Shown one piece after another: positions 26,194 to 46,275 of a stretch of DNA of 64,000 nt. Source of the stretch: Roseibium sp. (GTDB taxonomy: Bacteria; Pseudomonadota; Alphaproteobacteria; Rhizobiales; Stappiaceae); assembly GCF_965216085.1 (NCBI RefSeq), contig NZ_OZ244138.1, positions 5,121,377-5,185,376 of the forward strand. The letters run 5' to 3'. The notes beneath the pieces are model-generated. The model worked only from the letters and a program-made list of their open reading frames with translations, made no database searches and was not told where the DNA came from. The number at the start of each line of letters is the position of its first letter. The first letter of the stretch is position 1. Both the position numbers and the translations under genes were made by a program.

Positions 26194-27720
26194 ATGTCAG
26201 ACAACCCCAAATCGAATGAAACTGAAATCACCCGCGCGGCGAATGAAGACCTATCAAGGGAAGCGGAGATTGTGACAGGGAACGTCAATGCAGCCCTGGC
26301 TCAAATCAACGAGGACCTGGGGAAAGAGGGGGCGGTCGGTGCGTTGGCCCGCGGCAAAATCTTCGAACTCACAAAGCATAGCGAGTGGGCAGCCAGATCT
26401 TACGAACTTGCTTACAGCCTCGATTCTACGAACCTTGAACCGTTGGCGCGCTTGATTGTCGCTCTCATTCACTGCGGAAAATTTCAAGATGCTCTCAACC
26501 ACTCATACCAGCTTACCGCAAAGGACCCGGCTTTTGCGGTCGTTTCATTGTGCCAGGGAGAACTGTACAGTTCGCATACACTTCTTGCGGAGTCACTGCT
26601 GTTAAACGATATGATCGATGAAGCTCGGGCTTCGTTTAACGAAGCACTGAAAATAAATCCTGAGGATTCCCTATCTGCTGGCAGAATGGCCCAGATTAGC
26701 CTCTCGGATGGGGAGATTGAGTCCGCCATCGAACTCGCAGCCAAAACTGGTGATTCTCCTCGGTTTAAGCAGTTGCGAGCAATGGCAACATTGGCTTCGC
26801 GAAACAGCTCAACCGTACCGTTCCTAAAGATTGAGACGATCCAAGAACTTGCTGGAACTGCTTCATCCGCCGTTGGTAGGCCCTTGTCGGTGGATGGCTC
26901 TCGCGTGAGAGCCACGGTGAATACTGAAACGGATTGGGGTGCATCATCAACTCCCGCTTCAAGTCATGCTTTGCCGCGAGACGTCGCCGAGCACTGGGAC
27001 GCTATTGCAATGGAGGAGCATTCATCAATCGCCTCGTTTGCACGGCTACTCCTCGAATTCATGCACTTCGGTGTACCAGCCAGCCTGGTGGACGAAACAA
27101 TTGCCGCAATGGCCGACGAAACCGACCATGCTCGCGATGCGTTAAAGATTTCCAGCCGCCTAAAAGGAGAAAACACAGGAGCGGGCACTCTTGATGTTTC
27201 CAATGTGTTGACGCGAAAGCCAGCTCTGCGGACGTCTGTTAGGGAAGCGCTCTTTGAAGGCTGCATTAGCGAAACGATTGGGGCTCTCGCCGCTCGAAAG
27301 GCAGCGGAAACATGCAAAGACCCGGAAATAAAGAAGACGATGCAAAAGATTTCAAGCGACGAATTGCGGCATGCGGAAGTAGCTTGGCATTTTATTGAGT
27401 GGGGCCTCGAGCTCGAGCCGACGCTAGTCGATGAGTTGACTCGGTTTTTGGAACTTTCGCTGGACGAATTAACGGAAGCGAGCATGTCGAACTGGCCGGC
27501 CAGCGCTAAAGAACCAACGCCTGACTATGGCGCGCTTAATCGTGAACAAATGGCAGAAGTGTCACGCGAAACCTTTTCTGAGTTCTTTTTACCGCGAATA
27601 AAGAAAATAATCTCCGCTGTTGAGCAAAAGAAACAACACTCACCAAATCTCGCATTAGAGCCGAAAAACAATGCCGCTGAACTTATCTCAATTTCTCCTC
27701 AAACGACACTTATCGATTGA
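26194..27720 (+). CDS. TPR-repeat protein fused to a ferritin-like (diiron, ExxH) domain
   Basis: GGAGG RBS upstream. The N-terminal ~230 aa are TPR-like. The C-terminal half has EEHSSIASFARLLLEF, DETDHA, EGCISET and DELRHAEVAWHF, which are paired E/ExxH ligand motifs as in 'ferritin-like domain-containing' proteins. Confidence 0.7.
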   Translation: MSDNPKSNETEITRAANEDLSREAEIVTGNVNAALAQINEDLGKEGAVGALARGKIFELTKHSEWAARSYELAYSLDSTNLEPLARLIVALIHCGKFQDALNHSYQLTAKDPAFAVVSLCQGELYSSHTLLAESLLLNDMIDEARASFNEALKINPEDSLSAGRMAQISLSDGEIESAIELAAKTGDSPRFKQLRAMATLASRNSSTVPFLKIETIQELAGTASSAVGRPLSVDGSRVRATVNTETDWGASSTPASSHALPRDVAEHWDAIAMEEHSSIASFARLLLEFMHFGVPASLVDETIAAMADETDHARDALKISSRLKGENTGAGTLDVSNVLTRKPALRTSVREALFEGCISETIGALAARKAAETCKDPEIKKTMQKISSDELRHAEVAWHFIEWGLELEPTLVDELTRFLELSLDELTEASMSNWPASAKEPTPDYGALNREQMAEVSRETFSEFFLPRIKKIISAVEQKKQHSPNLALEPKNNAAELISISPQTTLID

Positions 27721-28777
27721 TGCGATAACGGAGGGGCTTTGTGCTGCTTTGGGCTTTGAATATGGTGATATCCTGATTGCTGTTGGATCGCTCGCAGAAG
27801 AACTGGGAAACGAGCGATCCGACTTCGACATCATGCTCGTCACCTCACGCACGAACTTCACATTTACCTATCCAAACGTCATCGTGGCCACAATCGCGGA
27901 CATCACAGTTGATATCGCTGTTGTTCAAAATAGTTGGGCAACGCAGACGATAAACAAAATAAAGAGCTTTGGAGATAACTACACTGACCCTCGAAACGCA
28001 GGTGAATTCTCAAGGCAAGAAATACAGTTCCTTCACCGCGTGTGTAACTGTATGGTACTTGCCGGGCACGATTCCGCGAGCCAGTTGAGGGCTCAAATCG
28101 CCTTCTCCCATCTAATTAGACAGCGGTTCTCAAACGCGTTTCACGAACTCAAGTGCTTGGTGGTTGATCTCGTCGGGTTCGAAGAGGAACGGGATTGGCA
28201 GAGTTGCATAATGGTCGCTCAGTTAATCTTAGATTACTCCATTGAATGCTTACTTGCATCATTTCAGTTAACTAATCCAAGCGCTAAGTGGCGAGCGAGA
28301 CTGCTGGGAAAGATCCCGCAAAACTGGGAAGATCGTTTACCTGGAGCGTTCTCAAAAAGGAGCGCTATCACAGTCTATTATGACCTACTGCGTTCACCCA
28401 CAACCATCGATACAGAGAGTGCACAAATTTATTGTAATAAGATCTGCTCGTTTATGCGGAAAGTTTTAGCTTTAGGCAGTTGGCGCACTTCAAACGATAA
28501 AAATGATACTGATCTTCGTTGGTATCGTGGCGAAACAGGTGCATTAGAAACGTTTCCTGTTCTTGATAGTTCGATTTTCTTTTATTATCAGGAAGAAACC
28601 TTCATCGGCTTCAATCTAAGACACAAAGAGCCGTATCTCCACAAGCTCTCTCCCAAGGACGTCGGCTTATTGTGCTACTATGACGGTGGGACGCACGCCG
28701 TCCGTTCAACACCCGCTGTAGCTGAAATGGCCAAGAAATTGGGGATTTTGCAGCCATTGCGAGACGGTCCATCATGA
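27671..28777 (+). CDS. nucleotidyltransferase-fold (Pol-beta superfamily) protein
   Basis: GSLAEELGNERSDFDIMLV is the GS...D.D minimal NTase motif, followed by a helical C-terminal domain. The start is uncertain. ATG 27671 overlaps the upstream gene by 50 nt, and TTG at about 27749 has a GGAGGGG RBS. Confidence 0.6.
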   Translation: MPLNLSQFLLKRHLSIDAITEGLCAALGFEYGDILIAVGSLAEELGNERSDFDIMLVTSRTNFTFTYPNVIVATIADITVDIAVVQNSWATQTINKIKSFGDNYTDPRNAGEFSRQEIQFLHRVCNCMVLAGHDSASQLRAQIAFSHLIRQRFSNAFHELKCLVVDLVGFEEERDWQSCIMVAQLILDYSIECLLASFQLTNPSAKWRARLLGKIPQNWEDRLPGAFSKRSAITVYYDLLRSPTTIDTESAQIYCNKICSFMRKVLALGSWRTSNDKNDTDLRWYRGETGALETFPVLDSSIFFYYQEETFIGFNLRHKEPYLHKLSPKDVGLLCYYDGGTHAVRSTPAVAEMAKKLGILQPLRDGPS

Positions 28778-28789
28778 GAGTGAGGTGAC

Positions 28790-29752
28790 ATGGATAACGT
28801 AGTGGAGGCATTGCTTATTGAAATTGGGGGAACAAACATACGAGCCAAGCTGCAAGGCAAAGACCTAAAGTCTGAGATGGTTATAGCGAAGACCAATTCT
28901 TTCAAATCCCTTTGGCAAGTGATTAACAGATTCAAAAACTTGTTTCGTCTACCAAATAGTCTCAGTAGCGAAATCAATATCAAAGTGGCTGCAGCCGGCT
29001 GCCTTCATAATGGGCGTTTCCTTTCTGACGACATTAAGTGGTTGAATCGAAGCCACGAGGAGTTAGCGGACGAAACTCAGAAACTTGGTTTTCGCTTGCT
29101 ATTCATAATGAACGATATGATTGCTACTTCTAATGGATGGTTAGCTAGGGAAGTAGCTCGAGTTGGTTGTTCAGAAGTATCATGTCCAATAGGTATCGTA
29201 GGCATTGGTACCGGATTTGGTGTCTCATCAATTCATCGCATTTCAGAAACCCAGTTTCTTATCCTAAGCTCAGAGTTGGGTTTTCTCCCAGTCAGTCCTA
29301 GCAAAACGACTCGCATACGAGACGTAGTTTCTGGACGCGCAATAAATGCGGCATCAGTACTCACTAAATCGAGCATAAATGAGCAAACATGCATTGATGG
29401 CAGCATTACAACCGTCGACGACTATTGGCAGGAAAGAAACACTGATCCCGATTTTTTGGATCATTTTCGTTGGTCGGTACTCGCACCTATACTCAGCCAA
29501 AATCTCCAGAAAATAGTAATTGTGGGCGGTGCTGCGTCGATTCTTCGATCTCAAGGAATAATTTCGCCTGAGGACTTAAAGCAGAACTTCTCAAACCGCA
29601 ACATTGGCAGCATACAACCCATGATTAATGACGTAGACGTTTCCTTTGACAGCTCAGAGGACCTTGCTCTGTTTGGTATGACAGAGAGCATTGGCAGAGT
29701 TTCACAGGACTTCTTAGCTACTAAAAATCACTCGCTAGTAGTTGGCTACTGA
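28790..29752 (+). CDS. glucokinase-family (ASKHA) sugar kinase
   Basis: IEIGGTNIRA matches the Glk block DVGGTNARLA, MNDMIAT matches INDFTAV, and GIGTGFGVS matches GAGTGLGVA. A GAGGTG RBS lies upstream. Confidence 0.7.
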   Translation: MDNVVEALLIEIGGTNIRAKLQGKDLKSEMVIAKTNSFKSLWQVINRFKNLFRLPNSLSSEINIKVAAAGCLHNGRFLSDDIKWLNRSHEELADETQKLGFRLLFIMNDMIATSNGWLAREVARVGCSEVSCPIGIVGIGTGFGVSSIHRISETQFLILSSELGFLPVSPSKTTRIRDVVSGRAINAASVLTKSSINEQTCIDGSITTVDDYWQERNTDPDFLDHFRWSVLAPILSQNLQKIVIVGGAASILRSQGIISPEDLKQNFSNRNIGSIQPMINDVDVSFDSSEDLALFGMTESIGRVSQDFLATKNHSLVVGY

Positions 29753-29758
29753 TACGAG

Positions 29759-31240
29759 ATGGGTAGCGCAGCAGTAATGACTGTAAATGCCGGCGGTTCG
29801 TCGGTTAAAGTCCATCTCTTCGGTCGTGGAAAGCTTCCCGAAGCGAGTGCCTCAATTGCACAGATGGACATTTTGAGTCGAAGAGTAACTATTCGATCTG
29901 GAAGCGAAACAATCCGCGAGGAAACGGTTTATGGCACAGAAAGCTGGTCCTGCCACGATCTCGTTTCCGCAGTATGTTCCATCGTCAATTCTCGCCCGGA
30001 TATTAGGCCAGAAGTTATCGCGCACCGGGTGAAGTTTGCGAGAGAAAGGTCTCCGGTATGCGAATTCGATCGGAGAATCTACAACTCAGTTCTCTTAAAT
30101 TCAAATTTGGCTCGATTGCACAACCCGATCACGCTGGAATTGTACAACATTACGGAGAGGGCTTTTCCAGATGCGACGCAGCTCGCAATCTTGGACAGCG
30201 GTATATTCTTTAATGATGGATTGAGCGATAGTTGCCCCCTCCTACCCCAACGAATAAGAAATAGGTATGAACTGCGTTCAACTGGTCATCATGGACTGGC
30301 ATTGGAAGACGTAATCAACTCACTCGACCCACCGGTCGGGCTAAAATCTATATGCGTCCATATTGGTTCTGGCGCAAGCGTTTCTGGGTTCGTTGGGAAA
30401 GAACCGCAATTCAGCAGTATGGTCCACGCTTCTATCGACGGACCAATAATGAACAGTCGATCCGGATCATACTCAGCTGGCGCCGTGCTTAAAATGATGT
30501 CGAAGGGCGCCTCATTACGCACTGTCTCCGATCTTTTACATTCCCATTCAGGTATTTTCGCGCTTGCGAACCAAGAACTAGAAGACAGAACCATGGTGAA
30601 AGATACAATAGCGGACATCTATGATTCGCCATTTAATGTATATATAGCTTCCTTTATTCGTGAGATTGTATCAGCATATTCAGAATTAAGCGGTTGTGAC
30701 GTTATAGTTTTTTCTGGAGGTGTAGCGCGTTCGGGACCAAAAATCGTAAGGATGATTGTAGACTTTCTGAAACACATGGGACTTCGGGTTCCAAACACCG
30801 ATCCAATTCTTCTTCCCTGCAGACTCGACACCAGAAGTGGATGCGTTATCGCAGTTTGTAAGGAGGCGGAAGAGCGAGTGATAGCTGCCAAAGCCAGAAG
30901 CTTCGTTTTTCAAGAGGAAGCAGATTGGTATGAGTGTGATCTAGTTGTGCCCGGGCTGGCACGCGGTCCACTACTAAACTTGAAGACTACTGACAAAAAG
31001 CAGGTTAATGCGATTATCCTCACGGAAAAGTTGACTACTGCGGCAGCTCTTTCTGCCCAGCGTTTTGGAGGATTGATTGCCTTAACGGGTGACGCTCTTG
31101 GACATGGCGCAGCGATTTGCCGAGAGATTGGCCTACCAACGGTAATTTGCAGTAATGAAAGCGTGTTAGAACACTTAGGAAAAGAAGTGTTTCTTGATGC
31201 GACAGAAGGGAGAATAAGACTGTGCTCTCAAAACGAGTAA
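29759..31240 (+). CDS. acetate/butyrate-kinase-like domain fused to a PEP-utilising-enzyme mobile (phosphohistidine swivel) domain
   Basis: AckA-like blocks are present: VNAGGSSVKV, RLHNPITL, ILDSGIFF, GHHGLA, HIGSGASV and VIVFSGGVARSG. The C-terminal ~100 aa read NAIILTEKLTTAAAL...GGLIALTGDALGHGAAICREIGLPTVI, which matches the swivel-domain pattern around the phospho-His. Confidence 0.75.
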   Translation: MGSAAVMTVNAGGSSVKVHLFGRGKLPEASASIAQMDILSRRVTIRSGSETIREETVYGTESWSCHDLVSAVCSIVNSRPDIRPEVIAHRVKFARERSPVCEFDRRIYNSVLLNSNLARLHNPITLELYNITERAFPDATQLAILDSGIFFNDGLSDSCPLLPQRIRNRYELRSTGHHGLALEDVINSLDPPVGLKSICVHIGSGASVSGFVGKEPQFSSMVHASIDGPIMNSRSGSYSAGAVLKMMSKGASLRTVSDLLHSHSGIFALANQELEDRTMVKDTIADIYDSPFNVYIASFIREIVSAYSELSGCDVIVFSGGVARSGPKIVRMIVDFLKHMGLRVPNTDPILLPCRLDTRSGCVIAVCKEAEERVIAAKARSFVFQEEADWYECDLVVPGLARGPLLNLKTTDKKQVNAIILTEKLTTAAALSAQRFGGLIALTGDALGHGAAICREIGLPTVICSNESVLEHLGKEVFLDATEGRIRLCSQNE

Positions 31241-32091
31241 AAGAGCAAATTCTTTATTGCAACCGTCCGCAATACACTCTTTCAGTTTTGCAATCTGACC
31301 TCACCCGGCGATCATTCGACAACGCAGGCGAACAAATTCTTGGGCGGAAAGCGTTTATTCACACAGATGAAACCGGTCTCGTATGGCTACCCAAAGATCT
31401 TCTCGCCCCACAGCTGGTCGATTTCTTCATTAAGAATCCATCAAAGTTCTACAGTGCTGTCGAGTCCAGGATGATTGAGTATTGCCGGACGAGTGAATTG
31501 GTGCGAGCGGCCGAAATTTCTCGCAATACAAGTGTCACAGCACAAATGAAAGCGCTAAGAGGTCTTGCATACGCATATATTGGTTTGCTCAAGTATGTGA
31601 TTATTGGAAATCTACTGATCGAAGAAGTGATCGGTCGCTTTCAGCAACTATTAGCGGAGTTCGTTCCGAACGAGCTGGCGGTTCAACACCTTGACTCCCT
31701 GTTACGCTGTGACGCGGTAGCAAGAGCTATAGATTTGCAATTTTTTGAAGACATTCGAGGAACAAAGCGTATAGAGGATGTTACCTCTGCTCCAGTTCAT
31801 ATTTTTGGCGATACTCGTATTGTTCACTCTGTTCCTACCGACGACAACGTCAACAGCTTTCTATTGCAAGCTAAAGGCTGTATTTCACGCTACGCACCAC
31901 TTCGATTTATCGTCCCTGTTGTCTACCAGATGGCAGAGGAATGGAGATACGCGGATTATTCTTTAAGAACGCATTTACGCTATTATCTCGATTCGCTTCA
32001 GGCTCAACTTGGAATTCAAAAAAACCTCTACGCCATGACGTTTAGTGAATTAGAGGCGGAGTTCATTACGTATGAATGCAGAGCCAACTAG
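31222..32091 (+). CDS. hypothetical helical protein (possibly related to the linker or substrate region of PEP-synthase/rifampin-phosphotransferase-type enzymes)
   Basis: 289-aa ORF with a GTG start overlapping the upstream gene by 19 nt. Only weak resemblance was noted (the C-terminal ..NLYAMTFSELEAEF is like the D.F.LT..EL block). Confidence 0.45.
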   Translation: MLSKRVKEQILYCNRPQYTLSVLQSDLTRRSFDNAGEQILGRKAFIHTDETGLVWLPKDLLAPQLVDFFIKNPSKFYSAVESRMIEYCRTSELVRAAEISRNTSVTAQMKALRGLAYAYIGLLKYVIIGNLLIEEVIGRFQQLLAEFVPNELAVQHLDSLLRCDAVARAIDLQFFEDIRGTKRIEDVTSAPVHIFGDTRIVHSVPTDDNVNSFLLQAKGCISRYAPLRFIVPVVYQMAEEWRYADYSLRTHLRYYLDSLQAQLGIQKNLYAMTFSELEAEFITYECRAN

Positions 32092-32184
32092 TGGCGCGAG
32101 ATGTGGCCAACCACCAGTTTTTCGGAGTGCTCTGAGCCGGAAGTTTCATCGGAGCGGGTCAGCTCCTTTTAGACAAAACTAGTC

Positions 32185-33429
32185 TTACCAGTTTTCAGCT
32201 CGCAAAACGTGAGGTTCAAGCCAACGATCATTTGTGCTGTTCAAATAATAGTCGAGGTCGATATGGTGCGCCTGTAACATGTTGTGTAAAAACATCGTAG
32301 GTACCGTAACAGGAAATCTACCATATTTTGAATGCATATATGTTGCAATTCCTTTGACCACTTCAGTCTGTGCTTCACTTAGACCGAAGCCGGACGTAGT
32401 GATATTATCGTAGTCTTTTCGGAGATGTCCTTCACGCTGAAGGTGAGCTTCAATGAACGCTTTCTTGTTATTTAAAAGGCTGTCAAACGCACAATCCATT
32501 TCCTCGTAGTATGGAGGGCAGTATCCTTCGAGTATGCCATCTAATCCAACAATGTTTGGAGTCGAGTTTCCGGAATGTTTCATCGAACGAAACCCGAGCC
32601 CATTCTTTCGACCACGCCGACTTCCGCAAAGCACTCCGGCACTGTCAAAACCGGAGAACATCCAACCGCCAAGCCCCATTGCTTGTAAAACCAACATACC
32701 ATTGTGGCAGGCGATTGCCATCTCTGAAGCCGCAAGCGTTAGTGCGTTCCTCTCAATCGCGCTAACTGGCATTGCGCGCTGTAGATCCAACTTAACCTCG
32801 AGGTCGTGTATGTTTGGCAGCCGCTGCTGTGCAATATCGTCGACGACTGTCCCTCCATTCACAACGAGGAGGGCGATCATTTCTAAAACAATTTGCGACA
32901 TGTCACAAACTGGAAGTATCAACAAGCTACCTTCCACGTTTGCATATTTCAAATTGTGCGCTGAAATATACTCGGGCGCTATTCGGAGACGATTGCTCGT
33001 TAACTTGGTTGTAAATCCAGCGAGATCAATATTTGGCCCATTTACTTCTTCCACAGTATCTGGAAGTGGAGCTTCAACTGACCTCGATAGCACGTGTACC
33101 CCGGTGTCGTCGGTGAAGAAGAATGTGGTCGGATACCACCCACCTGCTGAAGGGTAGGTACGACCCATTAAATCTGAAGGTATGTGCTCAGCTTTTAAAG
33201 GATAGTCGGGATTCATTTCAACGAAATGAATCCACGAGGTCGATCCAGCAACGCAAGACAAAACGATTTTTGTCTCAAACGCGGTCAAGGCATCGTCGTT
33301 CGTTCCTCTTTGATCACCAGACCGTCCTGAGTTGGCCTGAATTCCCCGCGAAACTCTACGAGACCTTCGCCCTGATAAAGCGAGCATCAAAGGGTAACTT
33401 AAAAAACTCGAGAACCCTTTCTTCAACAC
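32185..33429 (-). CDS. nitroreductase-superfamily (SagB/ThcOx-like) protein
   Basis: LSGRRSRRV near the N-terminus, YPSAGGWYPTTFFF (the PSAGxxYP motif) and LQAMGLGGW are all typical of the nitroreductase/SagB fold. An AGAGGAG RBS precedes the GTG start. Confidence 0.55.
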   Translation of the reverse strand: MLKKGFSSFLSYPLMLALSGRRSRRVSRGIQANSGRSGDQRGTNDDALTAFETKIVLSCVAGSTSWIHFVEMNPDYPLKAEHIPSDLMGRTYPSAGGWYPTTFFFTDDTGVHVLSRSVEAPLPDTVEEVNGPNIDLAGFTTKLTSNRLRIAPEYISAHNLKYANVEGSLLILPVCDMSQIVLEMIALLVVNGGTVVDDIAQQRLPNIHDLEVKLDLQRAMPVSAIERNALTLAASEMAIACHNGMLVLQAMGLGGWMFSGFDSAGVLCGSRRGRKNGLGFRSMKHSGNSTPNIVGLDGILEGYCPPYYEEMDCAFDSLLNNKKAFIEAHLQREGHLRKDYDNITTSGFGLSEAQTEVVKGIATYMHSKYGRFPVTVPTMFLHNMLQAHHIDLDYYLNSTNDRWLEPHVLRAENW

Positions 33430-33502
33430 TTAGCTCCTCTTTTTGTACAGATCGTTTATGCATTCACTAAGGCAATTTCGCAGACCTCTTTGATCGCCAA
33501 AA

Positions 33503-34636
33503 CTAAACAATGAAAGGGTCTGCTCGCGACTTCGCTAGAAACTCAGTCCGCGACGCGTCGTCAATTCGATCAATCGGTAAAGCAACTCGTTCATCAATCT
33601 CAATACCACTATCTAAAACTGACTTTGTCTTACTCGGACTCATTGAATACCACTTTCTAATTTCTTTAACCCCGAGCCAATGAAGGACGTCTATTGCTAA
33701 ACTGTGTTCTCTGCAATCCGAACAATCTGAAATAGCGCCCGTCCATTCAAAATATCGATCTTCGCTGTCTTTGAGACCAGATGACATGCGTAAGTTGTAT
33801 ACTAAGTACTTTATTACTTCACCGAGAGCCCGCCCCTCGTTTCTGAAATACGCAATGATTCCAATGCCGCCGGACTGAGAAAATTTTATACACTCCTCGA
33901 CAGAAAACAGAAGATAAGGACGACAAGAACAAAAATCGGACCCAAATACGTCCGAAGAAGTGCACTCATCATGAATACGACAAGCAACTCCGCGATCTAT
34001 TTTCGATTTAGATTCAATATTTCCGAAAATATATAGACTAATATTACCAACTGGCGGAAGAAAAACATTAACTTCCGGATTATCTTTGAGCGCGGGGGAA
34101 AATAATGAAAGTTCTTCTCTGAGCTCCTGCACTTCGAGGCCCAACCGGGCTGCCACTCCAGGTAAGTACCAAACCTGCTCAATCGCTATTTTAGTCACCT
34201 TCGCATGACCCGTTTTGCTAAGTATCAATTCGTCTGCACTGAGTAAACCTCGCTCTATCGCTATGCGAACTTCTGGAAACCAAACTACGCCCCGAGTAAT
34301 AGCAATTGTTGGTCTATGGTAATGGTCTGACGGATAGGTTCTTCCAAATTTGTCTATTGACAAATGGCCCCAGGGATCGAAAGACACGATAGTGTTATTG
34401 CGGCACCATTGCGGAAACGGACCAATTTGAACTCGAGGTTCCGTCCCTTGGAAATCTGGACGAAAGCCTAGTTTCTTTGTTTGGCCCCGACGAGCAATTG
34501 TCTGAAAAACCGCATGAGGCCCGCCGTATTGCCCAATTGCGTTGTAATCCGTATTAGGGAACAGTATTATCGGTCCCCTTTCAACTGCTGTGGGCGCGTT
34601 CCAATTAAGTTCACCCGGGGTTCGACCCTGCCTCAA
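33503..34636 (-). CDS. GTP cyclohydrolase II-like enzyme with a ~200-aa N-terminal extension
   Basis: VACRIHDECTSSDVFGSDFCSCRPYL parallels the RibA zinc/GTP block VRVHSECLTGDvFGS.RCDCG.QL. GIGIIAYFRNEGRALGEVIKY parallels GvllYLRQEGRGIGL.NK. The TTG start overlaps the Rieske stop (TTGA). Confidence 0.75.
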   Translation of the reverse strand: MRQGRTPGELNWNAPTAVERGPIILFPNTDYNAIGQYGGPHAVFQTIARRGQTKKLGFRPDFQGTEPRVQIGPFPQWCRNNTIVSFDPWGHLSIDKFGRTYPSDHYHRPTIAITRGVVWFPEVRIAIERGLLSADELILSKTGHAKVTKIAIEQVWYLPGVAARLGLEVQELREELSLFSPALKDNPEVNVFLPPVGNISLYIFGNIESKSKIDRGVACRIHDECTSSDVFGSDFCSCRPYLLFSVEECIKFSQSGGIGIIAYFRNEGRALGEVIKYLVYNLRMSSGLKDSEDRYFEWTGAISDCSDCREHSLAIDVLHWLGVKEIRKWYSMSPSKTKSVLDSGIEIDERVALPIDRIDDASRTEFLAKSRADPFIV

Positions 34637-34932
34637 TTTTCAACCTCATTCGATTGATCCTCAGCTTTGTTATCGCAGATAGGCTGCGGAATTAGACGAA
34701 GCGTCGTCGGACGGGCGATTAATTGTTCAACATGAAAAATCTTATGATGCATAGGGCATTCAATCCTATCACCGGTTAAATACAACCCGTGCTTAAGCGA
34801 CCCCGAACGATGGGGGCAAGCATTTTCAACCAAAAATAAATCTCCGTTATAGCACAAAATCACGTATTCAATATCTCCTTGGACTATCCGCGGTAATGAG
34901 TTTCCTAACCAATTCGACGAGAGGGTATTCAC
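34633..34932 (-). CDS. small Rieske [2Fe-2S] protein (NirD-like size)
   Basis: CPHRSG...(x17)...CPMHH is the Rieske CxH...CxxH motif. GTG 34932 overlaps the upstream stop (GTGA) and is preferred. The longest ORF starts at 34974. Confidence 0.75.
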   Translation of the reverse strand: MNTLSSNWLGNSLPRIVQGDIEYVILCYNGDLFLVENACPHRSGSLKHGLYLTGDRIECPMHHKIFHVEQLIARPTTLRLIPQPICDNKAEDQSNEVEN

Positions 34933-36152
34933 TGTCTCGTTTCCCGTCCTAAAGTGCCCGGAGGAAACTGACAAAAGTCCGACGGATCTCGGAGAGCTCC
35001 AATTCCACCAACTTGCAAACTACAAGCGTTACAAGACTGAATAGTCTGTGCCATCATGCTTGGCGTAAAACAATTTTCACTTGCAGAAATACTTTCATCC
35101 AATCCGTAGCTCACTGCTCCACTATCCGCTAATATATTAAAAACCTTACTCACATTGAGCAACTGATTACCAAACTCTTTAAACGTCTGTTGAGTGGCTG
35201 ATATTCCCGCCATAATGTCTATCTCTGCCTGCCTTCCAAATTTTTCAGCCAGTGGGATTGCCACCTCATCCAAAACCATCGACGAATGATGAATATCGAT
35301 GTGCGCATGTTCTGCGAAGTAAGTCGAATCAACTTCTGGATGGTGTCTCTTCAAATACAAATAATTCTGTTTCGTAGACTTCTGATAGGAACTTTCTGCA
35401 TAAATTAAGAAGCCAAGCTGAAGAAAAAAGTTTCGCGGGTTCTGGAATAAGTGGTGAATAAAATTATGCAATTTAAAGGTGTTAATATCGAATAAATACC
35501 AATAATGATTGTAATTCGTACTCAAGTGGAATCCCTCGAGCGTTGAACGGAAGAGCGAGCTGTGTTTCTTTTCAAAGGAGCCGTACCCGAATTCGTCGAT
35601 TAACACGCGAAAAAGAACTGATTGGGCTGGGCCATAGTCGCCCACAACTCCCAAGGCCGAAGCCGATGCTTCAGCAAGCAGATCGCTTGATGATTGGAGC
35701 AGAAAATTACGATAGTAATCCTTGCGTCTTTCATTATTTTCAAGAAATGTAATGAATTCATTCTCTGCGTTCATATCGAGTTCCGAACTCACATCCGACA
35801 AGAACTCCAAAAAACTCAACCGCTCAACGAGCTCGTAAGCAGTTCCGATTTCAGGTGTTATCAGTTTCTTCTCTATTGATGACTGCAAGTTAGAAAAGCC
35901 GCATCGTTCCCTCAGATCGTGATAGGCGTTAAATTCTTCCATACTTGTTTCCTGCACCTTTGGAAGTAAGACGTAGCGTCCTTGGTAACATCGAAAAAGT
36001 ACTTGATGCAGAACAAGGTGATAAAGCTCTATATTGTCGGATTGCTCTGACGGAATTGAATCAATTCGTAAGTCATATTCAGGCAAAACGGTTTGACCGG
36101 AGTGTCGAGAAATCAGTTTACTGATCGTGTCAATTTCTTTTTTGAACTTCAT
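34929..36152 (-). CDS. haem-oxygenase-like fold 'iron-containing redox enzyme' family protein (HDO-like)
   Basis: 407-aa all-helical protein. The block TYFAEHAHIDIHHSSMVLDE, together with upstream E/H-rich helices, is typical of the PF14518-type / CADD/PqqC-like diiron family. The assignment is by eye only. Confidence 0.55.
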   Translation of the reverse strand: MKFKKEIDTISKLISRHSGQTVLPEYDLRIDSIPSEQSDNIELYHLVLHQVLFRCYQGRYVLLPKVQETSMEEFNAYHDLRERCGFSNLQSSIEKKLITPEIGTAYELVERLSFLEFLSDVSSELDMNAENEFITFLENNERRKDYYRNFLLQSSSDLLAEASASALGVVGDYGPAQSVLFRVLIDEFGYGSFEKKHSSLFRSTLEGFHLSTNYNHYWYLFDINTFKLHNFIHHLFQNPRNFFLQLGFLIYAESSYQKSTKQNYLYLKRHHPEVDSTYFAEHAHIDIHHSSMVLDEVAIPLAEKFGRQAEIDIMAGISATQQTFKEFGNQLLNVSKVFNILADSGAVSYGLDESISASENCFTPSMMAQTIQSCNACSLQVGGIGALRDPSDFCQFPPGTLGRETRQ

Positions 36153-36845
36153 TTAGGATGACCGCTCATAAACAGTAATAGGCACGCCAGAAACCTGGTA
36201 GAGTTCGGTAAGGGTCCACTTAGATACTCCGCAGTCCTCCGAATATACATTCGGGCCAAAATACGTTGGTGCATCAGTGTTTCCGCAGACAACTGGAATA
36301 TGTTTTATTATTACCCTTCTCAATAGTTTAGAAGAGAATACTGTGTTCAAAACTCTGGATCCTCCCTCAACAAGAATCTTGAAAACATCGAATCTCCGTA
36401 ATTGCTCAGCTAACTCGCCAAAATTGACTGTATCGCCTCCGGCAACAAGGACTGTAACCGCCGGGTTCGATTGAAGAACTTCGATCTGGTTCGCTGATGC
36501 TTTCCGAGAAGTTGCAACTATTGTCGGAAGTCCGTCGGTCAGGACATTGCACTGTCTCGGCAAATTGCCGTCAGAAGATAGGATTACTCTAACTGGGCTC
36601 TTGCCCTCAAAGTGACGGGTGGTCAGAAGCGGGTTATCAGACCTTATCGTTCCAGCGCCAACCAAGATTGCATCATGTTCCGCTCTCACTTTGTGGAACC
36701 AAGACTTTAGATCCGATCCATAGAATTCGAAGAGCTGTTTGCTGTTGAACCCTGGACCGAGCGATATACGTCCATCAATGGTCAACTCGGTCAGTGTTGT
36801 CACTTCTGTTGAACGCATTTCTTTTTTCAATCGAACTCGACGCAT
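36153..36845 (-). CDS. RibD C-terminal-domain (DHFR-like) pyrimidine reductase family protein
   Basis: ELTIDGRISLGPG, DAILVGAGTIRSDNPLLT and ILVEGGSRVLNTVFSSKLL match the RibD_C reductase pattern. Its stop abuts the next start (TAAATG). Confidence 0.7.
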   Translation of the reverse strand: MRRVRLKKEMRSTEVTTLTELTIDGRISLGPGFNSKQLFEFYGSDLKSWFHKVRAEHDAILVGAGTIRSDNPLLTTRHFEGKSPVRVILSSDGNLPRQCNVLTDGLPTIVATSRKASANQIEVLQSNPAVTVLVAGGDTVNFGELAEQLRRFDVFKILVEGGSRVLNTVFSSKLLRRVIIKHIPVVCGNTDAPTYFGPNVYSEDCGVSKWTLTELYQVSGVPITVYERSS

Positions 36846-37538
36846 TAAACTAGGCTTCTCAGCTATTGAGCGGCCTGCTGCGGCGTCGAGCTCCCTCGCT
36901 TCCCAGCAATGTAAAGTTGAACCTTCTGCGCACTAATTCAGAACGTGTGTCAGGGACTTGTCAAGCATTTCTTATGTGGTTGGGTCAGGCTGAGGCTTTG
37001 ACAAACTTCAACTGTAGCGCAAGTGCGAACGATTTTTTCGCATACTAGAGGCATCTGTCACTTTGGTTTCGGCGGGTGACCAATCGTAAATAGCTTTGCG
37101 AGTTTGCTAAGGCTTCGTGCAGTCGCTGCAATCAGGAAGTAATCGTTTGCTCAATTTGGCCCTCGTATCTGAATTTATTCGATTGGGCAGACAGGTAGGT
37201 ACTAAAAGGCTTTTTGAGCTTTCAGCATCACAGTCGTCGAATACCTATCCGCATCGAATAGGCAACAGATCGAAAGTATGAATCACTATTGTTTGCAGGT
37301 TGAAAGATAATCCTATCCGTGAACAAAAAGAAGCCCATCATGATTGCAGCAACCTTTAGCTTTCCGGATATGATAATGGCTGTTCTTAGGATCCAGCCCG
37401 TTCTGGAACGGATCGATGCTGAAGCATAGTAACCCTATGTGGTCTTAGCACTGGTTGTGATCGGGTCGGGGTTGATAGTCTACGCTGAACCGCCGCGGGT
37501 TTGCCGGAGGCTCCAACTTCTGAGAAAGTGGAGCCGAT

Positions 37539-37793
37539 ATGAACAAGACAACAAACAAGTTTTCAGCTGAAATCCGTGAACGTGCCATCCGCATGGTGAT
37601 CGACCATGAAGGCGAATATCCGTCCCGGTGGGCCGCAGTATCTTCTATCGCAGCCAAGATCGGCTGCGCACCAGCGACGTTGCATGAGTGGGTCAAGAAA
37701 GCAGAGGTCGACAGCGGCAAACGAGCCGGCCTGCCGAGCGATGTGACCGAGAAGATGAAGGCCTTGGAGCGGGAGAACCGTGAGCTTCGTTAG
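37539..37793 (+). pseudogene. IS3 transposase orfA (HTH), terminated early by an in-frame TAG
   Basis: ...[37 protein letters not shown]. The conserved leucine-zipper segment continues in frame after the stop, and relatives read RELRQANEIL at this point. Confidence 0.6.
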
Positions 37794-37861
37794 GCTAACG
37801 AGATCCTGCGCAAGGCGTCTGCATATTTTGCGCAGGCGGAGCTCAACCGCCCACTGAAGCG

Positions 37862-38767
37862 ATGATTCCTTTCATCGATGAGCTTCGTCCGGTGTTCGGG
37901 GTCGAGCCGATTTGCAGAGTTTTGCCTATTGCCCCGTCGACTTTTTACGAGAGTATTGCCAAACGGGTGGGCATGGATCGCCTGTCGGTCCGCGCTCGCC
38001 GCGATATCGCCCTGAAGATCGAGATACGTCGTGTGTTCGAGGAGAACTTCCGGGTCTATGGCATGTGCAAGATCTGGCGGCAATTGCAGCGAGAGGGTTT
38101 TGATGTTGCTCGTTGCACCGTGTCCCGGCTCATGAGGTCCATAGGGCTTCAGGGGTTCATCCGTGGCAAGCCGGTGAAGACGACGTTTCCGGACAAGTCG
38201 GCACCCAGTCCAATCGACCGTGTGAACCGCCAGTTCAGGGCACCAGCGCCGAACACGCTCTGGGTTTCGGATTTCACCTATGTCGCCACCTGGCAGGGTT
38301 TCGTCTATGTCGCCTTCGTGATCGACGCGTTTGTGCGGCGCATTGTCGGATGGCGCGTCAGCCGGACGGCGCATGCGGCCGTTGTCCTCGACGCCCCGGA
38401 ACAGGCGCTTCATGATCGGCGGCCCGCTCGGGGTGGCGGCCTGGTGCATCACTCCGACAGGGGTGTTCAATACGTGTCGATCAGGTATTCGGAGCGACTG
38501 GCCGAGGCGGGAATTGAACCCTCAGTCGGGAGTGTCGGAGACAGCTACGACAATGCTCTCGCAGAAACGATCAACGGTCTTTACAAGATCGAGGTCATTC
38601 ATCGGCGTGGGCCGTGGCGCAGCTTCGAAGCCATTGAGTTTGCTACCCTGGAATGGGTCGACTGGTTCAACCACCGCCGTCTTCTGGAGCCAATAGGAAA
38701 CATCCCTCCGGCTGAAGCAGAGGGACAATACTACGCCACGCTGGATCAAACGGCCGTGGCTGCATAA
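37862..38767 (+). CDS. IS3 transposase orfB (DDE/rve integrase core), in the -1 frame relative to orfA
   Basis: LWVSDFTYV, HHSDRGVQYVS and DNALAETINGLYKIE are the D, D and E regions of the rve domain. It is normally expressed only as an OrfAB frameshift fusion. Confidence 0.85.
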   Translation: MIPFIDELRPVFGVEPICRVLPIAPSTFYESIAKRVGMDRLSVRARRDIALKIEIRRVFEENFRVYGMCKIWRQLQREGFDVARCTVSRLMRSIGLQGFIRGKPVKTTFPDKSAPSPIDRVNRQFRAPAPNTLWVSDFTYVATWQGFVYVAFVIDAFVRRIVGWRVSRTAHAAVVLDAPEQALHDRRPARGGGLVHHSDRGVQYVSIRYSERLAEAGIEPSVGSVGDSYDNALAETINGLYKIEVIHRRGPWRSFEAIEFATLEWVDWFNHRRLLEPIGNIPPAEAEGQYYATLDQTAVAA

Positions 38768-39304: not shown

Positions 39305-39707
39305 GGGCTGTCACAAAAAATATGTTTGACAAACGTGAGACTTTTCTCTCACGCTTATAGTTAATGGGATCATCCAACTAGCTCTCCCAAGAGCAAGATT
39401 CCAATACTTGGCATTCGTCATAGAAAGCTAAGTAAAAGCCATAAGGACAGGTATGCTGTCCATTCTTGGAGGTGAAAGACCTCTGCACCGCACGCGCGGT
39501 GCGATGCGCTGAATGGCGGCGCGGGCAAAAATCAACAGAGCCGGGGCATGAGCCAGGGTTCACCGAGTGTTTGAACGACCAACGTTCAAACACCCGGAGG
39601 CTAAAGCTGTTTTCAATTTGGTTTCCCGATGTTGGGAAGAACACGGTCAGGGAAGAAGGAATTTCAGCGGAAGGGTCAAGGAGCGAAAAGGAAAGGGAGC
39701 AACAGAA

Positions 39708-41495
39708 ATGATCCTGTTGGTTGTCTCGGAAGTTTGTCAGTTCGCGGTGACACTCATCGTCTTCAACTTCGTTGCGAGGACGCTCACCTTCTCGACCCTA
39801 AAATTCTTCGGGGCGTATGACCCTCGGTGGGATCTCAAATGGCCCCGTTTCCCGTGGCGCTGGGTCTGGCTCAATGTCTGGATCAGGTTCGGGGAATGGA
39901 TCGAGGAGAATTTCAAAAGCGGCAAAGCCACGGGTGGACTGACGGGGTCTGTCACGCAAATAGCGCTTACGTTTGAACCAAACCAAAGCCTCATCGGGCA
40001 AGCGCGGCTTCCTCTCGGTATCAGGCACTACAGTCTGGTAGGTGAGAAGTCCGAGCGCCACAAAGTCTTTGTTGCAAGCGCTCGTTCTGGGAAAAGCCTT
40101 CAGCTGCAAACCGAACTTGCTTTGATGCCTGACGATGCCAGGGCACTGGTCATCGACCCAAAAGGCGACCACACGCGCGACATCCTTTTTAAAGCTGAAG
40201 AAAACGGTCACGAGCTCTGTGTGCTCGATCCCCTTCGGATTACGGAACGCAGGAACAAGATCTGCCTGTTGATGCAGATCCAGCTCGTCAATAAACGTCT
40301 GGGCGAGGATCGCACAACGATGATGTGCGATCGGATCGCCAGCCTGTTTTTCCCGCACAATCCGCAAGCCAAGAACCCATACTTTGACGACACCGGGCGT
40401 GAGGGCTGGGCGCGCATGATGTGCTTTGTCTTGCACAAATACCCCACTGGAACGTTGCTGGATGTGCGCCGTCTGTTCGCCCGCGGTTATAATGAGGATG
40501 CCCCTGATGATCCCGAATTGGCCTTTGGGATGCTTTGGGAGGAAATGCTCGATTGCAATATCTACGATGGCTATGTGTCTTCGTTTGCGGCTGACCTCCT
40601 CAGTATGGATGAGCGCACACGCGCCAACGTTCTTTCAACTATCCGAAGCAAAACCGCTTTTCTTGACCACCAGCAGGTCAAAGACGTTTCTTGTGGCAAT
40701 GACGTCAATCTTTGCGATCTGAAGAACCCGGATAGCAACCTCATTATCTCCATCCCCGTGACGGTCGGCGACATGAAGACGACCTTACGCCCCTGGGTGA
40801 GTGCCATTGTCTCGCTGTCCTTGGCAATCATGGAGTGGATACCCGGAGACCTGAAGACCAAAACCCGGTTCGTCATCGAAGAAGCTCAGGCAATTGGTCA
40901 AACAGCGCTGCCTGGAATGGGTGACAAGGCTGCTCTTATGGCGGGGATGGGCGTGTCCCTTATCGTCGTCACCCAGGATTGTGCTGGTTTCAAAAAGAGC
41001 TTCCCACAAGACTGGCTTTCCATCATTGGCAATGCCCAGCACGTCATCTTTATGGCCTGCAATGATCATGAGACCTACGAGTATGTTTCTGACAAATCGC
41101 TCGGAATGAAGACGGTCAAACGAAAGAAATGGCACATCCCTTTTCTTTGGACGGTCTCAAGTTTTGAAAAGCCCGTCATGACACCTGACCAGGTGCGCCG
41201 TTTCCTTGAGGCCAAGAAGGGCTCAGCGATAGTGATGCGCAATGGCAAGCGCTCGATGTTCGTGAAGATCGCCAAGAGTTATCAGGTGCTGCCTGTTTGG
41301 CTGATCAACCCATCCAAAGACCACGGCGAGACAAGAGCCCGCGCGTGGTTCCGCTCTGTTTGGGAAGACTGGACATCCCGAAGGAACGAACAGGGCAAAC
41401 TGGTTGCCACCTCTACTCCCCGACTGCTGCCGAGTGATGAAAGCAAGCTGGACGCACTGCATTTGTCCACCCGGCCATCATCCTCCAAACACTGA
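39708..41495 (+). CDS. type IV coupling protein-like ATPase (VirD4/TraG family)
   Basis: N-terminal TM helices are followed by Walker A-like ASARSGKS, then VIDPKGD and Walker B-like RFVIEEAQAIG, then SLIVVTQDCAGFKKSFP. A GGGAG RBS precedes ATG 39708. The longest-ORF start at 39567 was rejected. Confidence 0.75.
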   Translation: MILLVVSEVCQFAVTLIVFNFVARTLTFSTLKFFGAYDPRWDLKWPRFPWRWVWLNVWIRFGEWIEENFKSGKATGGLTGSVTQIALTFEPNQSLIGQARLPLGIRHYSLVGEKSERHKVFVASARSGKSLQLQTELALMPDDARALVIDPKGDHTRDILFKAEENGHELCVLDPLRITERRNKICLLMQIQLVNKRLGEDRTTMMCDRIASLFFPHNPQAKNPYFDDTGREGWARMMCFVLHKYPTGTLLDVRRLFARGYNEDAPDDPELAFGMLWEEMLDCNIYDGYVSSFAADLLSMDERTRANVLSTIRSKTAFLDHQQVKDVSCGNDVNLCDLKNPDSNLIISIPVTVGDMKTTLRPWVSAIVSLSLAIMEWIPGDLKTKTRFVIEEAQAIGQTALPGMGDKAALMAGMGVSLIVVTQDCAGFKKSFPQDWLSIIGNAQHVIFMACNDHETYEYVSDKSLGMKTVKRKKWHIPFLWTVSSFEKPVMTPDQVRRFLEAKKGSAIVMRNGKRSMFVKIAKSYQVLPVWLINPSKDHGETRARAWFRSVWEDWTSRRNEQGKLVATSTPRLLPSDESKLDALHLSTRPSSSKH

Positions 41496-41513
41496 AACCA
41501 AGGAGATCAGTCT

Positions 41514-42506
41514 ATGAAGGTCCAATCTAGTCGCTACATCCCTCCGGAGTTCATTCGAGAGGTGACATGTCACCTGATGTTGAACAGGGCGAAGGCTGAG
41601 AATCCAGCCATTCGATCCCTTACTATGCTGATCGTCCAAGGTCCTGCTGGTTCAGGAAAAACGACATCCATTCGTCATATCTGCAATGTGATTTCTGCGC
41701 CGTTGTATGAAGTCCATGGCAAGGAACTTGTCTCTGAATGGGAAGGACAGGCAACAGCACCACTAGAAAAACAGGTTTTGGACGCCGCCAATGATCCAAG
41801 CCCATTCCAGCCCGTCGTTCTGGTTGATGACATCGAAATGAGCGGCTTCTCCGTCGATGCCAATTTTACGGGAACGGTCAACAGTAAGGCGTGTTCCGCA
41901 TGGCTGATGAGCTACGCTGACAATCCTCACAAGCTGAACATAAGGCCGGAAAAAGCACCACCGCGAACGCTTCACCTCAAGCGCCCGCCTGCTTTGATCC
42001 TTACGGTCAACAACATCTCTGCCCTACACAGCCCTATGGTGCGGGAAGGTCGCGCTTCTATTTGCACCCTCGATCCAAGAGGTATCGATCTACAAAGAGT
42101 GCTCGCTGGGATGTATCCCAAATTGTCTGTTCGCCAAGCCGGACAGCTGATCAAAAGACACCCGGGCAGATCAGTCGCCTTATTCTCCGATATCGGTGCC
42201 TACATCACCAAAAAATCCGCCCTTAGGTTCGCACAACGAGCCGGTTTGAACTTCAAGTCCATGGACTGGGCTGCCATGGCAGCGAGCATCGAAACGTCGT
42301 CAAACGGCGCGACCTATCACCAATTGGCAGACGCCGCTGAAGTCTTGGCCGCGCAATCAAGAAGCTCAAACTTTGTAGCAGCTCCAGACGATCCGGCTCC
42401 GCAACAACACCAACCTCATAATCCAATGGAACACAGCCAGAAAAATGGAGCCTGGTTTCCGCGTTTCCTGCCCGGATCACAAGATATCCCGGCATCAAAG
42501 CCCTAA
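41514..42506 (+). CDS. classic-clade AAA+ ATPase resembling the Rubisco-activase core
   Basis: Walker A GPAGSGKT and Walker B VVLVDDIE are present. The blocks KELVSEWEGQATAPLEKQV, FTGTVNSKACSAWLMSYADNP and LILTVNNISALHSPMVREGR parallel plant Rca blocks GELESGNAGEPAKLIRQRY, YTVNNQMVNATLMNIADNP and [20 protein letters not shown] as recalled from memory. Confidence 0.7.
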   Translation: MKVQSSRYIPPEFIREVTCHLMLNRAKAENPAIRSLTMLIVQGPAGSGKTTSIRHICNVISAPLYEVHGKELVSEWEGQATAPLEKQVLDAANDPSPFQPVVLVDDIEMSGFSVDANFTGTVNSKACSAWLMSYADNPHKLNIRPEKAPPRTLHLKRPPALILTVNNISALHSPMVREGRASICTLDPRGIDLQRVLAGMYPKLSVRQAGQLIKRHPGRSVALFSDIGAYITKKSALRFAQRAGLNFKSMDWAAMAASIETSSNGATYHQLADAAEVLAAQSRSSNFVAAPDDPAPQQHQPHNPMEHSQKNGAWFPRFLPGSQDIPASKP

Positions 42507-42521
42507 CAAAGGAGGTTAGAC

Positions 42522-43145: not shown

Positions 43146-43156
43146 GGAGAACAATC

Positions 43157-44016: not shown

Positions 44017-44302
44017 AGACAAGTGTATTCACCGATCCCAACTCAACCTTGTAGCCTTTAGTAAAGAAACTGGAGTTGATCGGGAATTTGCGTTCCCGAT
44101 CAAATTCCAGGTACAATATACTTATGGTTGCTATTATTTTGGATACCAACCAGATCTTCGAGACATCTTTATGTCCAAGGTCAGGCCATAACCAGAAAAT
44201 TAGATCAAACGCTCGGGGCGGGTGACCGTCATGACGCAGGTGGAGTCTGTCCAAAGCAGACCAAGAGAAACTTTTTGATCTCGTCGCAAAGGAGAAAGGT
44301 CA

Positions 44303-44608: not shown

Positions 44609-44662
44609 ATCAGAAGGCGAAATTTGCCTTCAGCTTAACGATACTCACAAGGAATTTGATAA

Positions 44663-46264: not shown

Positions 46265-46275
46265 GCTAAGGCCCC
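46200..46275 (-). tRNA. tRNA-Ala (anticodon GGC)
   Basis: The reverse complement is GGGGCCTTAGCTCAGCTGGGAGAGCGCTTCGCTGGCAGCGAAGAGGTCAGGGGTTCGATTCCCCTAGGCTCCACCA. It folds as a cloverleaf with the G3:U70 Ala identity pair, anticodon loop CT-GGC-AG, a GTTCGATTC T-loop and an encoded CCA. Confidence 0.9.

Follow-up and report, generated by a model that had tools for sequence, protein, structure and literature searches.

In a stretch of 64,000 nucleotides (nt) from Roseibium sp. (contig NZ_OZ244138.1 of RefSeq assembly GCF_965216085.1, positions 5,121,377 to 5,185,376; this whole stretch is hereafter called the window, and positions are counted from its first letter), five consecutive genes on the minus strand (36845-32185) encode a RibD_C-type NADPH reductase, a heme-oxygenase-like diiron oxidase (HDO), a small Rieske [2Fe-2S] protein, a long two-domain cyclohydrolase and a protein that probably has the fold of the FMN nitroreductase superfamily. 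The first four of these belong to a conserved, translationally coupled and apparently uncharacterised gene cassette of Alphaproteobacteria, of which the window holds an atypical, mobile variant without the CDP-alcohol phosphatidyltransferase gene of the usual form. With regard to function, we hold it to be an evenly balanced proposition that the cassette combines nucleotide ring opening, ribosyl-to-ribityl reduction and Rieske-supported N-oxygenation, the window carrying a divergent, horizontally acquired copy; the product would probably be an N-oxygenated ribityl compound. The interest of the system lies in the company its genes keep, as an SznF-type N-oxygenase, a Rieske protein, a riboflavin-type reductase and a cyclohydrolase of a uracil pathway are brought together in one conserved unit.

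Gene order and conservation of the cassette

The operon starts with the reductase gene (36153..36845, minus strand; 230 amino acids (aa); PF01872), the TAA of which (36155-36153) directly abuts the ATG (36152-36150) of the HDO gene (34929..36152, minus strand; 407 aa; PF14518). The HDO stop codon (TGA, 34931-34929) overlaps the GTG (34932-34930) of the Rieske gene (34633..34932, minus strand; 99 aa from this GTG; PF00355) in the tetranucleotide GTGA (34932-34929), and the Rieske TGA (34635-34633) in turn overlaps, as TTGA, the TTG (34636-34634) of the cyclohydrolase gene (33503..34636, minus strand; 377 aa; PF12471 and PF00925), which is preceded by a GAGG 7 nt upstream. Read from the minus-strand sequence and the list of open reading frames (ORFs), all three junctions are as described in the initial annotation; start and stop codons often overlap in this way in bacterial operons, and the overlaps are by themselves unremarkable. 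The ORF list offers an alternative upstream TTG (34974) for the Rieske gene, and the homologues of 83-86 aa have N-termini that line up with the GTG start of the window protein. The cyclohydrolase ORF cannot be longer, because TTG 34636 is the first start codon past the upstream in-frame stop. All five reading frames are intact.

Between the cyclohydrolase stop at 33503 and the GTG (33429) of the fifth gene (32185..33429, minus strand; 414 aa; a member of an uncharacterised family) lies a spacer of 73 nt (33430..33502, minus strand) ending in the ribosome-binding site (RBS) AGAGGAG, both of which had been pointed out before and were found again in the sequence. The protein database uses an alternative start for this gene, TTG 33426, which gives 413 aa. 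A pattern scan for promoters and terminators gave no more sites than in shuffled sequence and none in the gap, and the fifth gene is probably co-transcribed with the cassette genes because no terminator separates it from them. In an Rfam search of all 64 kb, neither a riboswitch nor a leader was found upstream of the operon, the only hits being the frameshift element of an IS3-family insertion sequence and one tRNA.

The distribution of the cassette was mapped by scanning one genome per GTDB species, complemented by a tblastn matrix, gene calls for eight contigs and metagenome contigs. The GTDB scan yielded 58 loci with the HDO, all from Alphaproteobacteria (Rhizobium, Phenylobacterium, Caulobacter and relatives among them) except for one metagenome-assembled genome labelled Gammaproteobacteria. 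In about 60 loci the canonical order is RibD_C, HDO, Rieske and a CDP-alcohol phosphatidyltransferase of 190-200 aa, the last being found in almost all sufficiently long loci; of the 49 loci that reach past it, 30 have the long cyclohydrolase next and 19 lack it. Consecutive genes overlap by 4 nt at the RibD_C/HDO junction in 48 of 60 loci, at the HDO/Rieske junction in 32 of 54, at the Rieske/transferase junction in 39 of 53 and at the transferase/cyclohydrolase junction in 18 of 29, and no other neighbour is common to more than about 11 cassette loci. The constancy of order and overlaps across some 60 alphaproteobacterial loci bears out that the four upstream genes of the window form a coupled functional unit, and it disposes of the possibility that the long cyclohydrolase and its neighbours are common riboflavin paralogues scattered independently over genomes. 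We found no published description of this cassette in literature searches, which included the combinations of an HDO with a Rieske protein and GTP cyclohydrolase II (GCH II), of SznF with a CDP-alcohol transferase and of an HDO with riboflavin.

The window copy shares 40-50% identity with the other cassettes in each of the four common proteins and agrees with the canonical form in the order of RibD_C, HDO and Rieske and in their junctions. It deviates in what follows: a CDP-alcohol phosphatidyltransferase is matched nowhere in the 64-kb window, even at E 10, and the cyclohydrolase gene is joined directly to the Rieske gene with no transferase between them. The guanine-plus-cytosine (GC) content of its cassette genes is 42-47%, versus 55-70% in the cassettes of three other loci (L001, L003 and L062). 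A second low-GC copy of RibD_C-HDO-Rieske was found on contig L063, with nothing after the Rieske gene. Transposase genes or fragments of the IS240 and IS1595 families stand beside several copies (L062, 3300-3719; L069, 500-1204; L063, 3384-3572), and the cassette may be mobile in general. The search for homologous five-gene cassettes that had been suggested initially thus shows the RibD_C-HDO-Rieske unit, often with the cyclohydrolase, to be widespread in Alphaproteobacteria; the usual copy includes a transferase, and the fifth gene belongs to none of them.

Proteins encoded by the operon

The reductase matches PF01872 (E 2.2e-32, 112.9 bits against a cut-off of 24.1) and is 41-50% identical to the first gene product of almost every homologous cassette. 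Its best NCBIfam model, TIGR00227 for the RibD C-terminal domain, scores below its cut-off (113.1 bits), as do TIGR01508, the equivalog model of the archaeal reductases of 2,5-diamino-6-ribosylamino-4(3H)-pyrimidinone 5'-phosphate (DARPP; 102 bits against 186.45), and the riboflavin reductase model TIGR00326 (75.3 bits against 156.35). By these model scores and by its closest solved structures (6P8C and 2AZN) the protein is nearest to the archaeal DARPP reductases, in agreement with the reduce-first likeness noted earlier. Families of RibD deaminase, lumazine synthase and riboflavin synthase gave no match among the ten genes of the low-GC island in which the operon lies, three of which have no Pfam match at all; this upholds the absence of these enzymes reported from the sequence and, with it, the expectation of a non-flavin product. 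A set of riboflavin paralogues was also considered as an identity for these genes and rejected, the riboflavin models scoring far below their cut-offs and the three riboflavin enzymes giving no match in the island.

The HDO matches PF14518 (E 2.2e-22, 80.2 bits against a cut-off of 28.9), and among solved structures SznF is its best relative (E 8.5e-37 for the sequence by itself, 4e-50 for a profile of 26 members). The match spans SznF residues 50-348, which make up the heme-oxygenase-like N-hydroxylase domain, and does not cover the cupin domain; Pfam found no cupin family in the HDO, which ends instead in a conserved tail of about 85 aa. Residues E161, E187, H197, E253, H282, D286 and H289 align with conserved SznF residues and are invariant in 26 homologues; we take these seven positions (three His and four carboxylates) to be the diiron ligands of the SznF structure papers. 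Weaker PDB matches were obtained with RohS and HrmI, which are N-oxygenases as well. Judged by these alignments, the HDO is a close homologue of SznF's N-hydroxylating domain that stands alone, and its homology to SznF, RohS and HrmI suggests an N-hydroxylating activity. Relatives of the HDO at 40-48% identity number in the hundreds, the named ones coming from Rhizobium, Pararhizobium, Phenylobacterium, Brevundimonas and Notoacmeibacter. An assignment as a CADD-type p-aminobenzoate synthase was rejected, SznF, RohS and HrmI being the nearest relatives.

The Rieske protein (PF00355, E 5.5e-8, 33.1 bits against a cut-off of 20.3) carries the motif CPH-17-CPMH from residue 39 of the GTG-start protein (window 34747-34818), and 53 of 55 homologues share the corresponding CxH-17-CxxH ligand motif. 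It matches weakly the ferredoxin components of ring-hydroxylating dioxygenases, and its gene always adjoins that of the HDO. Rieske ferredoxins reduce diiron hydroxylases in toluene monooxygenases. It is reasonable to presume that the Rieske protein donates electrons to the HDO; the full ligand set and the constant adjacency fit the role of electron carrier that the initial annotation had given it.

The cyclohydrolase consists of an N-terminal GTP_CH_N domain (34109..34627, minus strand; residues 4-176; PF12471, E 1.8e-46, profile positions 13-190 of 193) and a catalytic domain of the GCH II type (33584..34015, minus strand; residues 208-351; PF00925, E 4.6e-13), the latter where RibA-like blocks had been seen to begin, at about residue 210 of 377. 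The extension ahead of these blocks, to which the initial annotation had drawn attention, is no novelty but a known domain, with a full-length NCBIfam model (NF005536) and full-length solved relatives: PDB entries 7EJ3 and 7EEV (423-425 aa) match residues 10-374 (E 1.7e-91), and the N-terminal domain aligns with the N-terminal half of 7EJ3. Since the match to a known domain sets in at residue 4, the extension is translated and a mis-set start is ruled out. The RibA models stay well under their cut-offs (TIGR00505, 52.7 against 205.85 bits; NF001591, 65.6 against 148 bits). Residues C225, C236, C238, R269, Y280 and R309 align with C54, C65, C67, R94, Y105 and R128 of Escherichia coli RibA (2BZ0); by the roles reported for RibA in its structure paper, we take these to be the zinc cysteines, the catalytic Arg and Tyr, and, for R309, the equivalent of the presumed nucleophile. 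A single-sequence AlphaFold model of the window cyclohydrolase reached a pLDDT of 34.5.

A HMMER search of 1.84 billion representative proteins returned 147 cyclohydrolase clusters at E <= 1e-30. Among the longer matches are one fusion with uracil phosphoribosyltransferase (UPRTase; P0262) and four with DUF1688, also known as URC4 (P0282, P0290, P0298 and P0329); a fusion of CDP-alcohol phosphatidyltransferase with the cyclohydrolase occurs as P0261 (590 aa) and also at locus L023. Two further proteins, P0258 and P0259 (810 and 616 aa), contain two tandem cyclohydrolase copies each. Andersen and colleagues reportedly described, in 2008, URC1 as a GCH II-like gene of the yeast URC pathway of uracil catabolism, with URC6 as the UPRTase and URC4 as the DUF1688 protein. 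URC1 and URC6 break uracil down to ribosyl-urea and 3-hydroxypropionate (PMC7530994), and a passage of PMC12507026 cites, as its ref. 14, a 'UTP cyclohydrolase' within the URC pathway. It is because of the UPRTase and DUF1688 fusions, together with that passage, that we assign the window protein to the URC1 / UTP cyclohydrolase family.

Within this family, only 2 of about 70 conserved columns of the catalytic domain set the cassette-linked enzymes apart from the URC-linked ones, and the two groups share essentially all family-specific invariant residues; the cassette-linked enzymes also keep long-form residues unlike those of RibA (HDEC versus HSEC, and C-T-C-R-x-Y versus C-D-C-G-x-Q). As the family-specific residues are shared in this way, opening of UTP to ribosyl-urea appears at least as likely as opening of GTP to the 2,5-diaminopyrimidine. 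The window protein retains most long-form residues, including D223, S228, R239, Y241, Q254, E273, R283, Y295 and W320. At about 16 positions, each invariant in both groups, it has a different residue (G227S, T237S, A253S, K266N, G289K, G304D and Q311H among them), all catalytic and zinc residues being kept despite this; the replacements could reflect changed specificity or relaxed selection. Against NF005536 it scores 378.5 bits, below the cut-off of 403, the Phenylobacterium cassette orthologue reaching 572.5 bits. By its sequence, then, the cyclohydrolase is best described as a divergent member of the two-domain URC1 / UTP cyclohydrolase family and not as a riboflavin RibA, and it is this divergence that accounts for its sub-threshold score and for its long branch in a neighbour-joining tree. 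That tree is rough and we distrust it; bit scores rank the cassette and UPRTase-fusion groups highest for the window protein.

The fifth gene product matches the nitroreductase family PF00881 below its gathering score (E 0.0097, 16.5 bits against 23.5). An AlphaFold model built from 30 homologues (pLDDT 73, pTM 0.80) was compared by Foldseek with the PDB; all top matches were FMN nitroreductases, at weak scores (E 3e-3, target TM-scores of 0.5-0.6). Near the N-terminus it carries GRRSRR, an RRSxR-type motif at residues 20-24 that we take to resemble the FMN-phosphate motif of the nitroreductase superfamily. The label 'nitroreductase-like' of the initial annotation is therefore only weakly supported, by a sub-threshold family match and a fold match, and on the modelled structure the protein would be placed in the FMN nitroreductase superfamily at fold level only. 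It has 989 relatives at E <= 0.001; those listed are hypothetical proteins of about 430 aa without a Pfam domain, from Chloroflexota, Nitrospirota, Bacteroidota, Planctomycetota and others. In the three contexts examined, the relatives stand alone among unrelated genes with no cassette genes nearby, and none of the 61 other cassette loci has a relative of the fifth gene. Its candidacy as a core member of the unit was rejected on these contexts; of the five-gene operon originally proposed, the tight coupling of the four upstream genes stands and the fifth gene lies outside the conserved cassette.

Genomic surroundings of the window copy

The low GC of the island is set off from its neighbourhood, the adjoining IS3 and coupling-protein genes having 53-58% and the window beyond 48 kb 55-60%. 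The IS3-family element (37539-38767, plus strand), 700 bp upstream of the operon, contains the ALIL programmed-frameshift pseudoknot (37820-37936; 109 bits in Rfam) and is about 82% identical to copies on plasmids of Rhizobium, Sinorhizobium and Agrobacterium. It is followed by a type IV coupling protein gene (39567-41495), a serine recombinase gene (44663-45526) and a tRNA gene (46203-46275, minus strand), with an AAA ATPase gene also lying within 39567-46275; beyond them stands a high-GC gene for 5-enolpyruvylshikimate-3-phosphate synthase (47348-48703). The region 39567-46275 resembles the terminal part of an integrative mobile element that has inserted next to the tRNA gene. Because of the low GC of the island and the adjoining IS3 element and type IV coupling protein, the window cassette is taken to be horizontally acquired cargo of a mobile element integrated in the chromosome. 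At the DNA level, 28000-37500 and 39500-46000 showed no similarity to plasmids.

Convergent to the cassette runs a second five-gene operon (26194..32091, plus strand; GC 44-51%), for which Pfam and NCBIfam gave a TPR/rubrerythrin-like protein, an unknown protein of 368 aa, a glucokinase-like protein, a fusion of an acetate-kinase-like domain with a phosphoenolpyruvate-utiliser mobile (swivelling His) domain (29759-32091, plus strand) and an unknown protein of 289 aa. The kinase fusion has only three relatives in 5.8 billion proteins and invariably precedes an unknown gene of about 285 aa, with which it overlaps (in the window, on contig L067 at 8368-10664 and on contig L068 at 4243-6556), the pair looking like an undescribed phosphotransfer kinase system; on L068 it lies among the genes of a sugar-modification cluster. 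L067 carries a syntenic five-gene operon (4758-10664) with proteins 54, 42, 31, 42 and 48% identical to those of the window, and a protein-kinase/LanC-like gene upstream of it. This contig comes from sequencing run SRR23272331, which is also the source of the closest HDO cassette, L063 (48% identical), both being of about 47% GC. The convergent operon and the cassette may travel together, which we record as a lead only, the ends of L063 and L067 sharing no overlap. The kinase-rich operon is present in none of the 61 other cassette loci. Farther out, at 20005-25042 (minus strand), lie genes of defence-island type, for an SMC_N/AAA_23 ATPase (821 aa) and a fusion of an Mrr-type nuclease with an nSTAND3 NTPase (759 aa).

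Proposed chemistry, alternatives and comparison with known systems

In the pathway that we propose, the cyclohydrolase would release pyrophosphate from a nucleoside triphosphate and hydrolytically open the base; by family membership the substrate would be UTP, giving 5-phosphoribosyl-urea and a three-carbon fragment. The RibD_C protein would then use NADPH to reduce the N-ribosyl group to N-ribityl, a reaction known from riboflavin synthesis in archaea, and the diiron HDO would N-hydroxylate the ureido (or an amino) nitrogen, as SznF does on a guanidine, with electrons supplied by the Rieske protein. PgsA, PIP synthase and DIPP synthase accept polyol phosphates, and in the canonical cassette the membrane transferase could likewise join the polyol phosphate to a CDP-activated alcohol, the window copy without a transferase releasing a soluble product instead, which, or else the three-carbon by-product, the nitroreductase-fold enzyme may process. 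Taken to its specific end, a UTP cyclohydrolase would here have been diverted from uracil catabolism to the biosynthesis, by way of a ribityl-urea, of an N-hydroxyurea-type metabolite, attached to a lipid or polyol in most Alphaproteobacteria and soluble and possibly bioactive where it comes from the mobile island of the window; this fuller version we put forward tentatively and with more doubt than belief. The initial annotation had arrived at the same outline of ring opening, reduction and Rieske-supported oxidation; its choice of GTP as the substrate is probably wrong, and its number of genes is wrong.

Several points weigh against this proposal. The enzyme chemistry is inferred at every step, and co-transcription of the fifth gene is presumed. 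The role of the transferase is a guess, and in the window, where it is lacking, the pathway may end differently. That 7EJ3 and 7EEV are the published UTP cyclohydrolase is our own assumption, made from their architecture and from the dates we attach to their PDB codes. The window cyclohydrolase falls below the NCBIfam cut-off, has lost some 16 invariant residues and is placed by the rough neighbour-joining tree outside the cassette-linked clade, so its substrate may differ or the gene may be decaying. Its RibD_C partner descends from reductases acting on a GTP-derived pyrimidine, which favours GTP, and genes for UPRTase or DUF1688 gave no tblastn match in the window or in the 61 cassette loci, within 10 kb of any cassette.

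A GTP route is possible, and we would be mildly surprised if it proved correct: RibA-like opening would yield DARPP, the reductase would act without deamination, and the HDO and Rieske protein would N-oxygenate the 5-amino or 2-amino group to a non-flavin ribitylaminopyrimidine, for instance an analogue with a nitroso or hydroxylamino group, a potential antimetabolite of lumazine synthase. Its best support is the proximity of the reductase to the archaeal DARPP reductases, and a GCH II-type enzyme paired with a reduce-first reductase mirrors the first two steps by which archaea make riboflavin; a deaminase was not found among the genes of the island, and the RibA zinc cysteines and catalytic Arg and Tyr are all kept in a window enzyme that departs from the URC-type consensus at many positions. 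It has to contend, however, with RibA models scoring far under their cut-offs (TIGR00505 at about a quarter of the bits demanded), with a cyclohydrolase family tied to uracil metabolism by its fusions and by the literature, and with the long-form residues by which the cassette-linked enzymes are distinct from RibA. If the family tie is pressed further, the cassette could be catabolic and replace the later URC steps, the reductase and oxygenase degrading phosphoribosyl-urea instead of URC4 so that uracil or uridine nucleotides serve as a nitrogen source; with no DUF1688 gene near any cassette, ribosyl-urea would need another route, and the fifth gene could find a role here, as RutE, a classical nitroreductase-family enzyme, handles the equivalent three-carbon by-product of the Rut pathway. 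We consider this improbable, since catabolism has no place for a membrane CDP-alcohol phosphatidyltransferase, which in some cases is fused to the cyclohydrolase, ribosyl-to-ribityl reduction and N-hydroxylation are steps of a biosynthetic type, no UPRTase, urease or urea amidolyase is linked, and 19 of 49 loci do without the cyclohydrolase altogether.

Equally, the window copy might be a decaying remnant that makes nothing, the transferase having been lost on transfer into the mobile element and the cyclohydrolase drifting since. The missing transferase, the replaced residues with their sub-threshold NCBIfam score, the nearby IS3 element and a composition foreign to the surrounding DNA would all suit such a history. 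It is nevertheless hard to reconcile with five intact reading frames in which all metal ligands and catalytic residues are kept, and the clean TTGA overlap of the Rieske and cyclohydrolase genes, with its GAGG ribosome-binding site, looks evolved and not accidental; the low-GC copy on L063 that ends after the Rieske gene is a second case of its kind. We therefore regard decay as quite unlikely and retain, at the strength given above, ring opening followed by reduction and N-oxygenation, with UTP as the substrate indicated by family membership. If characterised, the cassette would show UTP (or GTP) cyclohydrolase chemistry at work in biosynthesis, and it may lead to an N-oxygenated ribityl metabolite, or a lipid head group, of a new kind.

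Compared with the canonical cassette, the window copy differs in having no transferase and in being accompanied by a nitroreductase-fold gene and a convergent kinase-rich operon; as a natural transferase-less variant it could help to separate the soluble steps from the membrane step. With the URC1/UrcA UTP cyclohydrolase the window enzyme has in common the full-length two-domain architecture, the zinc cysteines, the catalytic Arg and Tyr and most long-form motifs (HDEC, SD-FGSD, C-x-C-R-P-Y-L and EGRALGEV), but its gene is coupled to those of a reductase, an N-oxygenase-type HDO and a Rieske protein and does not lie next to UPRTase or DUF1688 genes. The first two steps of archaeal and fungal riboflavin synthesis (GCH II or GCH III with a DARPP reductase such as MjaRED, Rib7 or 6P8C) likewise combine a cyclohydrolase with a RibD_C protein in the absence of a deaminase, whereas both window enzymes score below the trusted cut-offs for riboflavin and the cyclohydrolase is linked to uracil.

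SznF and the window HDO are homologous over SznF residues 50-348, with all seven ligand positions conserved. Unlike SznF, the HDO has no cupin domain, so that no N-nitrosation step is expected; it has its own tail of about 85 aa and a dedicated Rieske partner instead, and its neighbours point to a nucleotide-derived and not an arginine-derived substrate. In the bacterial multicomponent monooxygenases, T4moC and T4moH form a pair of Rieske ferredoxin and diiron hydroxylase. Here too the genes of a small soluble Rieske protein and a carboxylate-bridged diiron oxygenase lie side by side, the former protein being presumably the reductant of the latter; the diiron protein of the window is heme-oxygenase-like, however, whereas theirs has a ferritin-like fold, and no reductase or effector protein is encoded nearby. 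To our knowledge, few heme-oxygenase-like diiron oxidases have a known physiological electron donor, and the cassette points to its Rieske protein as a candidate native donor for one of them.

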